IMG/VR virus record: IMGVR_UViG_3300014204_000132
Source of the DNA: a virus
Taxonomy: Duplodnaviria; Heunggongvirae; Uroviricota; Caudoviricetes
DNA length: 64,000 nucleotides
Strand: one strand, 5' to 3'
Part shown: piece by piece, positions 61,103 through 64,000 of the stretch
How positions within the stretch are numbered: the first letter of the stretch is position 1
How the letters are laid out: every line of letters starts with the position of its first letter
The notes under the pieces: model-generated
Database searches by the model: none
The model's input: only the letters and a program-made list of their open reading frames with translations
What the model was told of the DNA's origin: nothing
Program-made: the position numbers and the translations under genes

Positions 61103-61582
61103 ATGGAAGCTGATGTAATTTATGTTTCTTGGCCTGAACTTATCAGATTAACTGATGCACTTCTTAAAAAAGTAACTGAAAAAACATATAATTCTATCAT
61201 GTGTATCAGTTCTGGTGGATTGGTTCTTGGAAAATTGGTGAGTGACCAACTTTCACTTCCTCTATCAATTATATCAGCAAAATCATATAAGAATGGTGAA
61301 ACTGATAGAACTGATTCGGATGTTATAATAGGAACTATATCTACCACATTCGAAATAAAAGATAATATTTTATTAGTTGACGATTTGGTTGATGGTGGAT
61401 ATACTATGAAATTGGTGAAAGAACAGCTTTTACAAAATAAAAATATAAAAGAAATAACAACTGCTACTATATACAAAAAACCCTTGACTGTTTTTGTACC
61501 AGATTATTTTGTCGAAGAAGTGTGTGATTGGATTGTGTTTCCGTATGAAAAACACGAATTTTTTAAAATAAAAAATACGTAA
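61103..61582 (+). CDS. gpt: xanthine-guanine phosphoribosyltransferase (Gpt-like)
   Basis: IYVSWPELI..., ISSGGLVLGKLVS and the PRPP-binding motif LLVDDLVDGGYT. 159 aa with a WIVFPYE C-terminus, co-linear with E. coli Gpt. Confidence 0.7.
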   Translation: MEADVIYVSWPELIRLTDALLKKVTEKTYNSIMCISSGGLVLGKLVSDQLSLPLSIISAKSYKNGETDRTDSDVIIGTISTTFEIKDNILLVDDLVDGGYTMKLVKEQLLQNKNIKEITTATIYKKPLTVFVPDYFVEEVCDWIVFPYEKHEFFKIKNT

Positions 61583-62761
61583 ATGAAAATTGACATTAAT
61601 AAAATAAAAGTTATTCCTAATTCAATTAGTAAAAAATTTGGAATTTGCGTTTATGGTTCACCTGACCAAGAGGTTTCTCAGTGGATACATGAGAATAATT
61701 TTAGATTGATGATGTCAGATAAATTTACCAATATAATTATACCAGATGATGTTATTTTATCTGATATATTTTTCGATGCTGTAAAATATGACTGGATGGA
61801 TGGTTTCAGTCCTAATTTAAATAAAAACTTGCATATTGGTCATTTTTCAAATTTGGTATTAGCTAAAGCTTTTAAATCACTTGGGGTGTGTGAAAAAACC
61901 ATTAGTATTTATGGTGATACATTAGAAGGTGATGTATCAAAAGAAGATGCGTTAACATATCTGGATAAATATCAAAAAAATTTTAATTTCTTTTCAGATA
62001 AAGTTACGATGGCATCTAAGGTAAAATATAACGGTGATTTACTTAAAGATGGCATGGGTGATTATGAAGGAACAATGGTGTTTGAAATTGGAGATGAAAA
62101 AATTGTTGGTATAAAAAGTAATGGTCAAACATCATATTTTTATCAAGATGTAGCATTGGCTGAAAAATTAAATGCTCCGACACTTTACCTAACAGGTAAT
62201 GAACAATCCAATCACTTTAATTTATTGAAGAAGATGTTTCCACATATAGACCATGTTGGTCTTGGGTTGGTGAAGGTTGGAACAAAAATGTCAAGTCGTT
62301 TGGGTAATGTTATTTTCATTGAAGATTTTATCAATCAAGTAAAGGAATCTTTCAATAATGATATACAACTAATTTATAATGTGTTCGCAGGGTTTATTTT
62401 AAAATCAAATCCTGACGTTGATAAAAATATAAATTTAGAATTGATAAGTAATCCTAAAAACTCATCAGGACTTTATTTAAGTTATACTATGGCTCGGTTG
62501 AAAAGTGCTGGGTGTGAATATTTACTTTATGAGAATTTTTATTCTAAAAGTTTAGAATTTGCTTTTTTAAAATCCAAAATCAATTTGAAGCCTAATGTTT
62601 TATTTGAAGCTTTGGTTGAACACTGTAAAGATATAAATTCGTTTTATTCAATATTAACAATAAAAGATAGTCTTAAAAACAAAAAATTTTTCGAGGGGAT
62701 GTTATCTGATTTGATTTTTGGATGTGATAAGTTAGGATTATTTGTCATTAATAAAGTTTAA
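61583..62761 (+). CDS. compact arginyl-tRNA synthetase-like class I aaRS
   Basis: GFSPNLNKNLHIGHFSNLVLAKAF (ArgRS SPN...H.GH.RS pattern), KMSSRLGNVI (MSTR-like), LYLSYTMARLKS (PYLQYAHAR-like). 392 aa, shorter than typical ArgRS. Confidence 0.55.
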   Translation: MKIDINKIKVIPNSISKKFGICVYGSPDQEVSQWIHENNFRLMMSDKFTNIIIPDDVILSDIFFDAVKYDWMDGFSPNLNKNLHIGHFSNLVLAKAFKSLGVCEKTISIYGDTLEGDVSKEDALTYLDKYQKNFNFFSDKVTMASKVKYNGDLLKDGMGDYEGTMVFEIGDEKIVGIKSNGQTSYFYQDVALAEKLNAPTLYLTGNEQSNHFNLLKKMFPHIDHVGLGLVKVGTKMSSRLGNVIFIEDFINQVKESFNNDIQLIYNVFAGFILKSNPDVDKNINLELISNPKNSSGLYLSYTMARLKSAGCEYLLYENFYSKSLEFAFLKSKINLKPNVLFEALVEHCKDINSFYSILTIKDSLKNKKFFEGMLSDLIFGCDKLGLFVINKV

Positions 62762-62933
62762 TTTTTTTATTATGGAAGAAATTGTAAAAGAATATGGGTT
62801 TGAATCTTTAGTGGAATTCCATAACCTTATAGCAAATGTTGATTTAACGAGTCCTGATAAAATAGCTAAATTTAAAAAATGGCAAGGTACAGACGGAACA
62901 AAAACAGGTCTGTTAAAATTACAAAGTGTATAA
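62742..62933 (+). CDS. hypothetical small protein
   Basis: 63-aa ORF overlapping the end of the ArgRS-like gene. Confidence 0.3.
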   Translation: MSLIKFNFFIMEEIVKEYGFESLVEFHNLIANVDLTSPDKIAKFKKWQGTDGTKTGLLKLQSV

Positions 62934-63021
62934 TTTTTTTATAATTTTTTTATAATTTTTTTATAATTTTTATTCATATTATATTTGTTGTCAAATAAGT
63001 TTTTTATACTAAAAATAAAAC

Positions 63022-64000
63022 ATGAACAATTACAAATATATAACTACAACATTACCTTATATAAATTCAACTCCCCATATCGGGCATTGTTTTGAATTTG
63101 TGTTGGGTGATGTTATTGCTGAGTATCATAGATTAAATAGTAAAGTGTTTTTTAATGTTGGTATTGATGAACATGGACAAAAAGTTTATCAAAAATCAAT
63201 AGATGAAAATTATTTAAATACACAAGATTATTGTGATGTGTTTGCTGGAAAATGGAAAGAGTTTTGTTCTTTATTGAAAATAAATTATGATAATTTTTAC
63301 CGAACAACAGATAGTAAACATAAAGAAAATGTTTTGAGATTTTATAATGAAATCGAGAAATTTGTTTTTACAAAAAATTATGAGGGAAAATATTGTGTAG
63401 GTTGCGAATCATTTATCACAGAAAAAGAAATTGTTGATGGTAAATGTCCAATACATAAAACAGATTTAATACTCACTAAAGAAACTAATAAATTTTTTGA
63501 TTTATCAGAATTTTCGAATTTGATTAAAGATGTTTTGGTTGATAAAAATAAGTCGGCAGAACTAAAAAACATCATTCAGGATAAGTTTGATTTATCAATA
63601 ACAAGACAAAATGTAAATTGGGGAATTGATACTGGTGATGGAGATGTATTTTACGTTTGGTTTGAGGCGTTATTGAATTATATTTTTGCAATTAAATACT
63701 ATGAAGATAAAGAGTATTTCAATAATTTTTGGAGTAATTCTTTAATTATATGTGGGAAGGATAATTTAAAATTCCAAGCCTATATCTTACAAGCAATTTT
63801 ACTTTCAAACAATGTACCACAAACAAAAGAAGTTCTTGTTCATGGGAATATATTAGATGCTGATGGAAATAAACTAAGTAAAACATCTGGATATATTATA
63901 GACCCGATTGAACAAGTTAAAAAATATGGCTTAGATGCAGTAAGATATTATTTGATTTTTGGCCTTAATACTTTAGTAGATAGTAAATATTCAGAAACAG
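63022..64000 (+). CDS. metG: methionyl-tRNA synthetase, partial (N-terminal 326 aa; continues beyond window end)
   Basis: PYINSTPHIGH, GIDEHGQKV, the zinc knuckle CVGCESF...CPIH, YVWFEAL and KLSKTSG (KMSKS). No stop codon before position 64000. Confidence 0.8.
   Translation, partial: MNNYKYITTTLPYINSTPHIGHCFEFVLGDVIAEYHRLNSKVFFNVGIDEHGQKVYQKSIDENYLNTQDYCDVFAGKWKEFCSLLKINYDNFYRTTDSKHKENVLRFYNEIEKFVFTKNYEGKYCVGCESFITEKEIVDGKCPIHKTDLILTKETNKFFDLSEFSNLIKDVLVDKNKSAELKNIIQDKFDLSITRQNVNWGIDTGDGDVFYVWFEALLNYIFAIKYYEDKEYFNNFWSNSLIICGKDNLKFQAYILQAILLSNNVPQTKEVLVHGNILDADGNKLSKTSGYIIDPIEQVKKYGLDAVRYYLIFGLNTLVDSKYSET

Follow-up and report, generated by a model that had tools for sequence, protein, structure and literature searches.

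The 392-aa class I protein encoded near the end of the phage DNA considered here is probably a working miniature arginyl-tRNA synthetase (mini-ArgRS). Its gene lies in a putative translation and salvage block of a huge phage, together with genes for a purine-type phosphoribosyltransferase (PRTase) and a compact methionyl-tRNA synthetase (MetRS). As the initial annotation had noted, aminoacyl-tRNA synthetases (aaRS) are a known hallmark of huge phages, with up to 15 genes per genome (PMC7162821), and a gene block of this kind is thus no novelty. The new element, judging from sequence comparison, is a deep, diversified ArgRS clade, seen so far only in phage-like DNA and trimmed by about a third, which appears to keep every sequence-readable catalytic and tRNA-recognition signature.

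The window (the whole analysed stretch of 64,000 nt) is huge-phage DNA from a genome of about 678 kb. It encodes a fused type II topoisomerase, a UvsW-like helicase and GIY-YIG endonucleases, and consists mostly of ORFans. Identical proteins are recorded for a 678-kb contig, and full-length ArgRS relatives occur in the uncultured phages LR745206.1 (634,780 bp) and LR756504.1 (636,363 bp) of Al-Shayeb 2020. Thus the phage-like nature of the genome, suggested from the sequence before, was borne out. When positions 40-64 kb were compared by megablast with 50,697 phage records, nothing matched; at the nucleotide level the genome thus has no close relative among deposited phages. The following features were located at the end of the window.

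61103-61582, plus strand: type I phosphoribosyltransferase, 159 aa (PF00156)
61370-61405, plus strand: PRPP loop of the PRTase, LLVDDLVDGGYT (motif position)
61583-62761, plus strand: mini-ArgRS, 392 aa, ArgRS-like class I protein
61583-61786, plus strand: mini-ArgRS residues 1-68, reduced N-terminal (Add-1-like) domain, beta-alpha-beta-beta
61724-61732, plus strand: mini-ArgRS candidate A20-pocket motif F48-T49-N50
61787-62461, plus strand: mini-ArgRS residues 69-293, Rossmann catalytic core with shortened Ins-1
61799-61816, plus strand: mini-ArgRS D73/N78
61832-61843, plus strand: mini-ArgRS HIGH, residues 84-87
62135-62149, plus strand: mini-ArgRS Y185-F-Y-Q-D189
62192-62218, plus strand: mini-ArgRS T204-G-N-E-Q208-S-N-H-F
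62285-62299, plus strand: mini-ArgRS KMSSR, residues 235-239
62462-62758, plus strand: mini-ArgRS residues 294-392, shortened DALR-type anticodon-binding domain, four helices
62474-62500, plus strand: mini-ArgRS YLSYTMARL, residues 298-306, opening the DALR-type domain
62772-62933, plus strand: ORF of 53 aa between the ArgRS and MetRS genes (gene call, relatives)
62934-63021, plus strand: AT-rich spacer with 3-4 tandem TAATTTTTTTA units, 5' of MetRS (read from sequence)
63022->64000, plus strand: MetRS, first 326 aa, no stop codon, cut by the window end (PF09334)
63076-63087, plus strand: MetRS HIGH, residues 19-22
63394-63405, plus strand: MetRS CVGC (C125-x-x-C128)
63445-63456, plus strand: MetRS CPIH (C142-P-x-H145)
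63871-63885, plus strand: MetRS KLSKT, residues 284-288

The PRTase stop codon abuts the start codon of the ArgRS-like gene (TAAATG at 61580-61585). The three plus-strand genes, initially described as consecutive, are all present at their positions; however, the 53-aa ORF precedes MetRS. This ORF, which close relatives conserve, is called as a gene in loci L001 and L002, follows the ArgRS gene in L056 and the MetRS gene in L057, and has no family match in Pfam and NCBIfam-type profile searches. All three genes are under purifying selection, with dN/dS against close relatives of 0.08-0.15 overall (0.08-0.12 for mini-ArgRS, 0.13-0.15 for PRTase, 0.09 for MetRS). Conservation of the PRTase/ArgRS/MetRS block is limited to close relatives, whose ArgRS are at least 83% identical. 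A conserved three-gene operon was rejected beyond these relatives, as PRTase and MetRS are not adjacent to the gene in distant loci. No T-box or other known RNA leader was observed at the block, the sole Rfam match in the window falling elsewhere. Scans for promoters and terminators yielded no usable information in DNA of such high AT content.

The mini-ArgRS is distant in sequence from canonical ArgRS. It scores below the cut-offs of PF00750 (19.5 bits, cut-off 23.3) and TIGR00456 (44.6 bits, cut-off 261.65). A phmmer search with the single protein against PDB sequences found nothing at E <= 1, and local hhalign against E. coli ArgRS alone gave a low-probability alignment. ArgRS chains in PDB were reached with the family profile only. 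Comparison by hhalign with the canonical ArgRS profile had a probability of 100% (E 2.9e-40) and aligned family positions 42-392 with E. coli 74-577. The AF2 model of the protein is confident (pLDDT 91, pTM 0.90), and its C-terminal helices also have high pLDDT.

The canonical references were E. coli ArgS (577 aa, PDB 4OBY/5B63), the yeast enzyme (1BS2/1F7U) and the T. thermophilus enzyme (1IQ0). With 392 aa the protein is about one third below the 550-607 aa of canonical bacterial, yeast and archaeal ArgRS, and its identity to them is 13-18%; it has ~185 residues fewer than the E. coli enzyme, and the trimming extends across all modules. The first ~30-70 residues of Add-1 (the GDYQ region) are absent, more than half of Ins-1 is gone (~63 against ~137 residues), and the stem-contact and anticodon-binding parts are shorter. 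Thus an earlier statement that typical accessory regions are lacking went too far, since each ArgRS module persists in a trimmed form, including the mini N-domain and the DALR-type domain. The latter aligns end to end with approximately residues 455-577 of E. coli ArgRS, including the patterns Y..Y...R and P...Y. The Pfam model DALR_1 does not detect it in the window's own protein but exceeds its threshold in two compact relatives, P0244 (28.2 bits) and P0190 (24.8 bits).

The class I and ArgRS signatures assigned initially to the 392-aa protein (HIGH, KMSSR, YLSYTMARL) were all located, notwithstanding its sub-threshold scores. HIGH aligns to E. coli H129-V-G-H132, and KMSSR to MSTRKG of yeast and KPFKTRAG of E. 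coli. Arginine is bound by D118, N123, H132, Y313, D317 and Q341 of E. coli, and N153, Y347, D351 and Q375 of yeast (PMC3956977). Residues D73, N78, H84/H87, Y185, D189 and Q208 of the mini-ArgRS align with E. coli D118, N123, H129/H132, Y313, D317 and Q341, and the yeast arginine-binding residues fall in the aligned columns as well. The five candidate arginine ligands are invariant in a 40-member alignment. Among 93 compact representatives, which reach down to 22% identity, conservation is 84/93 for D73, 85/93 for N78, 88/93 for Y185, 74/93 for D189 (with glutamate in a further 12) and 85/93 for Q208; the HIGH and KMSSR positions are kept at a similar level (H84 in 85, H87 in 83, K235 in 90 and R239 in 79 of the 93). 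E. coli R324, a residue that buttresses D118, has no counterpart in the mini-ArgRS. In the reduced N-terminal domain the pattern [Y/F]48-x-N50, conserved in the compact representatives, is a likely match to the motif of the A20 pocket.

In relatives, genes of tRNA-Arg are strongly enriched next to the mini-ArgRS gene. In non-redundant relatives, 22 of the 45 tRNA genes within 1.5 kb decode arginine, against 8 of the 141 located further away (odds ratio 15.9, p 3.6e-10), and the nearest tRNA is tRNA-Arg in 10 of 16 loci. The anticodons of the linked tRNA-Arg are UCU (11), CCU (10), ACG (4) and UCG (1), so that most of them read AGA/AGG. A20 is present in ~25 of these 26 and in 6 of 139 other tRNAs. 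It should be noted that a clustering of tRNA arrays with aaRS genes is general in such phages (locus L003). The window itself contains no tRNA gene (tRNA scan, 64,000 nt), and the link is thus observed in relatives only. AGA and AGG comprise 73% of the window's arginine codons. The suggestion that the enzyme serves the phage's own tRNAs gains support from the relatives, where phage tRNA-Arg genes flank the gene, but has no counterpart within the window. Altered tRNA recognition, proposed together with it, is not indicated: the [Y/F]-x-N pattern is kept, and the linked tRNAs have A20, with this single approximate exception, and usual arginine anticodons.

We infer the catalytic activity, tRNA substrates and physiological role of the mini-ArgRS as follows. 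ATP would be bound through HIGH and KMSSR, and arginine by the canonical set D73, N78, Y185, D189 and Q208. tRNA-Arg would be recognised via the A20 pocket of the reduced N-domain ([Y/F]48-x-N50) and the short DALR domain. The enzyme would then charge tRNA-Arg, particularly the phage AGA/AGG decoders that adjoin the gene in relatives, and the charged decoders may sustain translation of AGR-rich phage genes. Canonical ArgRS requires tRNA for arginine activation, and the trimmed regions could matter for this step. A bolder proposal, which we make only tentatively, is that mini-ArgRS and the flanking tRNA-Arg(UCU/CCU) of relatives form a private, host-independent module for AGA/AGG decoding. The enzyme would then be a natural near-minimal ArgRS, about 30% below any characterised size, with full tRNA-Arg recognition and charging, and may prefer phage tRNAs or remain active after a shutdown of the host ArgRS or tRNA-Arg, or an attack on them. 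As for a conserved protein partner supplying the missing modules in trans, it was rejected: the best neighbour cluster occurs in just 6 of ~45 loci.

The family is widespread and, in the contexts inspected, has been found so far only in phage-like DNA. There are 651 mini-ArgRS homologs, and the best 120 of the 651 have 322-420 aa, mostly 386-420. When 1.84 billion representatives were searched exhaustively with phmmer, 213 hits resulted, almost all of 360-450 aa, and canonical-length ArgRS barely appear among them. A phage form of 573 aa (P0197) also exists. Two readings are in our view very improbable. According to the first, the block would come from a bacterial host, or from mis-assembly or contamination. 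Indeed, six MAGs with bacterial labels (Ignavibacteriales, Bacteroidota, Sediminibacterium, Cellvibrionaceae) carry family members, and NCBI assigns two members to Ignavibacteria MAGs. However, these six are the only carriers among 185,579 species genomes, and all six are MAG contigs; four have lengths of 88-522 kb, and in one there are 21 tRNA genes within 6 kb upstream. The family also occurs on 36 viral contigs of IMG/VR and in closed, curated genomes of huge phages (PMC7162821 supplements), the window is rich in ORFans and has phage-type replication genes, and distant members adjoin T4 baseplate genes. Placement in a bacterial clade with bacterial flanking genes, the outcome that was specified initially as pointing to host DNA, was not borne out by these genomes. 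Still less credible is that the gene is left over from a full-length argS by truncation and is decaying. The protein is indeed 185 residues shorter than its E. coli counterpart, but its length is conserved in hundreds of homologs, dN/dS is about 0.1, the predicted fold is compact and confident, both termini align to ArgRS termini, and the deletions are scattered over loops and insertions instead of forming a single terminal truncation.

Two further readings accept an intact protein and assign it another role. One possibility, in our view unlikely, is an ArgRS-derived paralog outside translation, which would transfer activated arginine to a tRNA base, a metabolite or a protein, and not to the 3' end of tRNA-Arg. 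Truncated aaRS paralogs with other roles are known, namely GluQRS/YadB and MshC, which are likewise small, have the class I Rossmann fold and descend from aaRS. However, unlike GluQRS, the mini-ArgRS retains a DALR-type anticodon-binding domain and the candidate A20-pocket motif, and the tRNA-Arg genes linked to the family have normal anticodons and A20. Moreover, no other ArgRS is present in the two related huge phages checked, as tblastn with E. coli ArgRS found no canonical ArgRS in LR745206.1 or LR756504.1. The other possibility, to which we assign about half that weight, is a catalytically weak or inactive binder that shields or sequesters tRNA-Arg from host anticodon nucleases, or acts as a regulator. 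The conserved tRNA-binding elements and the adjacent phage tRNA-Arg genes would fit such a protein, and phage tRNAs have been proposed as a counter to tRNA-targeting defences (PMC10264068). However, conservation in 74-90 of the 93 representatives extends to HIGH, K235 and all of the arginine-binding residues, and this speaks against a binder, since binding alone would not need them. A working mini-ArgRS thus remains the preferred reading.

The setting of the family is that of the phage aaRS reported previously: genomes of the Mahaphage type above 600 kb, with tRNA arrays and several aaRS, and the mini-ArgRS family is indeed present in them (PMC7162821). However, phage aaRS were described there as related to host aaRS, whereas this family has no close cellular counterpart. 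In the readable GenBank supplements of that study the members are labelled 'seg id=720916 bin=RAAC39 ... Ignavibacteria', with no aaRS name. UniProt entry A0A8D9CCB2 (BFVD), named 'Arginine--tRNA ligase [uncultured marine phage]', belongs to this compact family, with 385 aa, 50% identity and TM 0.83-0.85; thus at least one member has already been named ArgRS by automatic annotation. JGI also calls several other members ArgRS, and NCBI records say 'hypothetical'. No description or characterisation of a compact phage ArgRS was found in the searchable literature. The ArgRS of giant viruses (Klosneuvirus, Yasminevirus, Mimivirus) are also virus-encoded and structurally related (E 1e-15 to 1e-10). 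However, those of Klosneuvirus and Yasminevirus are full-length eukaryote-like enzymes of 619-658 aa with 14-15% identity to the mini-ArgRS, and belong to another virus realm and another host domain; the BFVD entry for the Mimivirus enzyme has 443 residues and 14% identity.

If the protein is active, it would set a lower size limit for a complete ArgRS and reveal dispensable parts of Add-1, Ins-1 and the anticodon domain, which is relevant to how aaRS evolved and to translation systems that are minimal or orthogonal. The aaRS inventories of huge phages would then be undercounted, because the family is not named as aaRS in the readable huge-phage annotations and is 'hypothetical' at NCBI. Pairing with phage tRNA-Arg would provide a concrete case of a phage supplying both the enzyme and the tRNA for its dominant arginine codons.

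The gene upstream of mini-ArgRS encodes a PRTase (PF00156 Pribosyltran, 68 bits, E 7.6e-19). It has the type I fold, and its PRPP loop LLVDDLVDGGYT aligns to VIDDLVDTGGT of E. coli Gpt. The initial assignment as a xanthine-guanine PRTase stands for the enzyme class but not for the 'Gpt' label: the best NCBIfam model, NF006613 (xanthine PRT), scores 66 bits against a cut-off of 138, below the equivalog level, and the protein shares 25% identity with E. coli Gpt (E 6e-8). HGPRT models match too (33-44 bits), and JGI labels the homologs as hypoxanthine PRTase. The protein is thus best described as a candidate Gpt/HPRT-like purine-type enzyme, the Gpt name being the best sub-threshold match only. 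Just 13 homologs were found, one of them on a 640-kb contig. A second co-occurrence of PRTase and ArgRS genes was seen in locus L058, and a functional link between them was rejected because the L058 PRTase is of a different, APRT-like type (20% identity).

The downstream MetRS, recognised initially from HIGH, the zinc knuckle and KLSKT, was confirmed by Pfam (tRNA-synt_1g PF09334, 207.7 bits, threshold 20.1), with HIGH, a KMSKS-type loop and the zinc-knuckle insertion of a class I core. The window end truncates the gene and leaves 326 aa, of which residues 2-325 match NF008900 with 277.6 bits (cut-off 598). Its ortholog P0271 is 93% identical and has 463 aa, with ~115 residues beyond the catalytic domain, where Pfam detects no anticodon-domain model. 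MetRS orthologs have ~463 aa and occur on contigs of up to 723 kb.

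Four plus-strand ORFs occupy the final 2.9 kb of the window:

61103-61582, plus strand: phosphoribosyltransferase (PRTase), 159 aa, PF00156
61583-62761, plus strand: mini-ArgRS, 392 aa, with HIGH, KMSSR and DALR-start motifs
62772-62933, plus strand: small ORF, 53 aa
63022 onward, plus strand: MetRS, PF09334, 326 codons and then the window edge

Thus the initial annotation was right in placing PRTase, ArgRS-like and MetRS genes here. They do lie on the same strand, but they are not consecutive, as the 53-aa ORF between ArgRS and MetRS had been overlooked. The ORF from 63022 clearly encodes a MetRS, judging by its sequence: it matches PF09334 at 207.7 bits and contains HIGH, a CxxC...CPxH knuckle and KLSKT. 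The MetRS orthologs are about 463 aa long. The 159-aa protein is a type I phosphoribosyltransferase (Pfam PF00156, 68 bits). The name Gpt given to it is a lead rather than an assignment, because its best NCBIfam match, the xanthine-PRT model, is sub-threshold (66 bits vs 138), hypoxanthine-PRT models also match, and it shares 25% identity with E. coli Gpt. The start codon (ATG) of mini-ArgRS immediately follows the PRTase stop codon (TAA), which suggests only co-transcription in this genome. The spacer that separates the 53-aa ORF from MetRS contains TAATTTTTTTA repeated three to four times in tandem (62934-62975), which could be a phage promoter or a regulatory repeat.

Mini-ArgRS scores below the curated cut-offs of PF00750 (19.5 vs 23.3 bits) and TIGR00456 (44.6 vs 261.65). 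The profile of its family matches the canonical ArgRS profile with probability 100% (E 2.9e-40), residues 42-392 corresponding to E. coli 74-577 and reaching the C-terminal end. An AlphaFold model from 40 family members has pLDDT 91 and pTM 0.90, and the top 20 Foldseek matches of the mini-ArgRS model in PDB are all ArgRS. The motifs named initially are present: HIGH at residues 84-87, KMSSR at 235-239, YLSYTMARL at 298-306. Functional positions correspond as follows, with residue roles taken from PMC3956977:

D73: E. coli D118 (yeast E148 by position)
N78: E. coli N123 (yeast N153)
H84 and H87: HIGH histidines
Y185: E. coli Y313 (yeast Y347)
D189: E. coli D317 (yeast D351)
Q208: E. coli Q341 (yeast Q375)
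K235-MSS-R239: MSTR-type loop
Y298..Y301...R305: start of the DALR anticodon-binding domain

In the N-terminal 68 residues, the beta-hairpin segment F48-T-N50 aligns with E. coli F82-I-N84; the Tyr/Phe-x-Asn/Gln motif has been proposed to recognise the tRNA-Arg identity base A20 (PMC3956977). Close family members show little or no variation at any of the listed positions or at this motif, and 74-90 of the 93 compact representatives retain them, at identities down to 22%. Compared to the E. coli enzyme, mini-ArgRS lacks roughly the first 30-70 residues of the N-terminal domain Add-1, about 74 residues of Ins-1 (an insertion in the catalytic core), short stretches downstream of the KMSKS loop and within the anticodon-binding domain, and a counterpart of R324. 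The losses are thus dispersed along the protein. The dN/dS values against two close relatives are 0.08-0.12.

A word-indexed search produced 651 homologs. The best 120 of them have 322-420 aa (mostly 386-420) and 52-84% identity, and reside on contigs of up to 712 kb. When 1.84 billion cluster representatives were searched exhaustively with phmmer, only 213 matched, nearly all of them 360-450 aa long; ArgRS of canonical length are scarce among them. This compact family was found on 36 IMG/VR viral contigs, and at only six loci in 185,579 species-representative genomes. All six are on MAG contigs, four of these being 88-522 kb long, and one locus is preceded by 21 tRNA genes within 6 kb. Distant members (22-28% identity) adjoin T4-baseplate genes, PolC-type polymerases or long ORFan runs. 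The compact family is seen only in phage-like DNA among the contexts inspected, which cover a minority of its members, the majority lying on short contigs. The closest relative of canonical length is P0197, a divergent 573-aa ArgRS from locus L058, an ORFan-rich 212-kb contig of GCA_034680565.1 that also encodes IF3, a 972-aa IleRS-like protein, a release-factor fragment and a PRTase 2.7 kb upstream of the ArgRS. The latter PRTase is of a different, APRT-like type, and no specific PRTase-ArgRS functional link is apparent. Members are annotated as hypothetical at NCBI and as ArgRS at JGI and in one UniProt entry (A0A8D9CCB2, 385 aa, 50% identical). In the curated closed genomes (GenBank files in the supplement of PMC7162821) they are not named as aaRS; their sole label, a best hit in an Ignavibacteria bin, is uninformative. 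A literature search found no paper on the compact ArgRS family.

The order PRTase, mini-ArgRS, 53-aa ORF, MetRS is retained only in the close relatives L001 and L002 (identical), L056 and L057 (mini-ArgRS identity 84% and 83%, respectively); the small ORF of L057 comes after MetRS. In L056 (6150-7482) the MetRS ortholog is broken into two overlapping ORFs of 167 and 285 aa, which may reflect a frameshift, a sequencing error or a pseudogene. In more distant relatives mini-ArgRS is located in other translation islands. Across the non-redundant loci none of the neighbouring protein-coding genes is conserved, the most frequent cluster occurring in 6 of about 45 loci. The island of L003 (LR745206.1) comprises a 735-aa class Ia aaRS, 19 tRNA genes, a GluRS-like gene and, immediately upstream of mini-ArgRS, a 392-aa class II aaRS of the Asp/Lys/Asn type (10788-11966). 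This enzyme appears small by the standards of class II, suggesting that miniaturisation extends to several aaRS in these phages. The adjacent tRNA array includes three tRNA-Asn genes.

Genes for tRNA-Arg repeatedly flank mini-ArgRS in relatives (e.g. L004, L012, L016, L019, L023, L026, L037, L040); in L045 there are four, ending 15 nt upstream of its start codon. In non-redundant loci, tRNA-Arg accounts for 22 of 45 tRNA genes within 1.5 kb vs 8 of 141 beyond (Fisher OR 15.9, p 3.6e-10), and is the nearest tRNA in 10 of 16 loci vs 16% expected (p 3.7e-5). This supports, in relatives, the proposed tie to the phage's own tRNAs. The linked tRNA-Arg have anticodons UCU (11), CCU (10), ACG (4) and UCG (1), and about 25 of the 26 have A at position 20, vs 6 of 139 other tRNAs. 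At the sequence level, this A20 appears to match the conserved pocket motif. Altered tRNA recognition, also proposed initially, is thus unsupported, and the initial interpretation as a whole stands only in part. No tRNA genes were found in the 64-kb window, where 245 of the 335 Arg codons in long ORFs are AGA or AGG. A tblastn search with E. coli ArgRS as the single query found no canonical ArgRS in LR745206.1 and LR756504.1. Many over-long predicted tRNAs of 85-93 nt (Asn, Met, Thr, Cys, Arg) occur in arrays of L003, L004, L012, L019, L035 and L037; they may represent introns, unusual variable arms or mispredictions. A tRNA with the CUA anticodon (amber suppressor; ARAGORN label tRNA-Pyl) at L016 4794-4865 is a hint that some members of this phage group recode stop codons.

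The data are most simply explained if the 392-aa protein works as an ArgRS of reduced size. Such an enzyme would aminoacylate tRNA-Arg under the usual identity rules (A20 and anticodon); in infected cells it probably acts, beside the compact MetRS, on the AGR-decoding tRNAs that the phage itself encodes. An arginine-activating paralog using another acceptor is disfavoured, as the tRNA-recognition modules are retained, and so is a tRNA-binding decoy, given the conserved catalytic residues. The conserved length and purifying selection argue against a decaying gene, and the phage-like distribution of the family against bacterial contamination.

The initial annotation placed these genes in a phage-like genome and pointed to huge phages, correctly so. 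Proteins identical to mini-ArgRS and PRTase are recorded from a 678,337-bp contig, and the best GenBank phage matches of mini-ArgRS, both full-length, are in the uncultured phages LR745206.1 (634,780 bp, 55% identity) and LR756504.1 (636,363 bp, 48%). Genomes of this size class have been described as the Mahaphage clade, for which Bacteroidetes hosts are predicted (Al-Shayeb et al. 2020, PMC7162821), and up to 15 aaRS per huge-phage genome have been reported (PMC7162821). An aaRS in a huge phage is as such already known.

The window has 26% G+C and about 74 ORFs, the majority without a family match. UvsW-like and other helicases are among the recognisable genes, as well as the following:

417-1175, minus strand: radical-SAM protein
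1182-1898, minus strand: family-25 glycosyltransferase
6361-7086, minus strand: GIY-YIG endonuclease-like ORF with NUMOD1 domain
8570-9481, minus strand: cytidylyltransferase-like protein
16625-19918, minus strand: single-chain type II topoisomerase, 1097 aa, with GyrB-like ATPase/Toprim and GyrA-like parts in one polypeptide
31059-32960, plus strand: SPFH/Band-7 protein, 633 aa
40302-41363, minus strand: GIY-YIG endonuclease-like ORF
57752-60118, minus strand: 788-aa ORFan, no Pfam or PHROG match
60214-61032: 272-aa protein with a signal-like N-terminus (MKKYIFILIAILISTLSFSQ), the remainder being extremely Tyr/Asn/Thr/Arg/Gln-rich and of low complexity, no family match

Both GIY-YIG ORFs are probably homing endonucleases. 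The sole Rfam match above the gathering score in the window is the DUF805b RNA motif (13571-13603, minus strand, 40.3 vs 35.6 bits, E 5.6e-8). The PRTase gene is preceded, directly after the 272-aa ORF, by a terminator-like element at 61036-61060: a short GGTGG-TTCT-CCAC hairpin and then a T-run. It is absent from the consensus scan output. At the position of the 272-aa ORF, close relatives carry a comparably sized ORF (250-272 aa). Homologs of the 788-aa ORFan are located 2-8 kb from mini-ArgRS in L003 and L037, and a 789-aa ORF occupies the corresponding position in L056.
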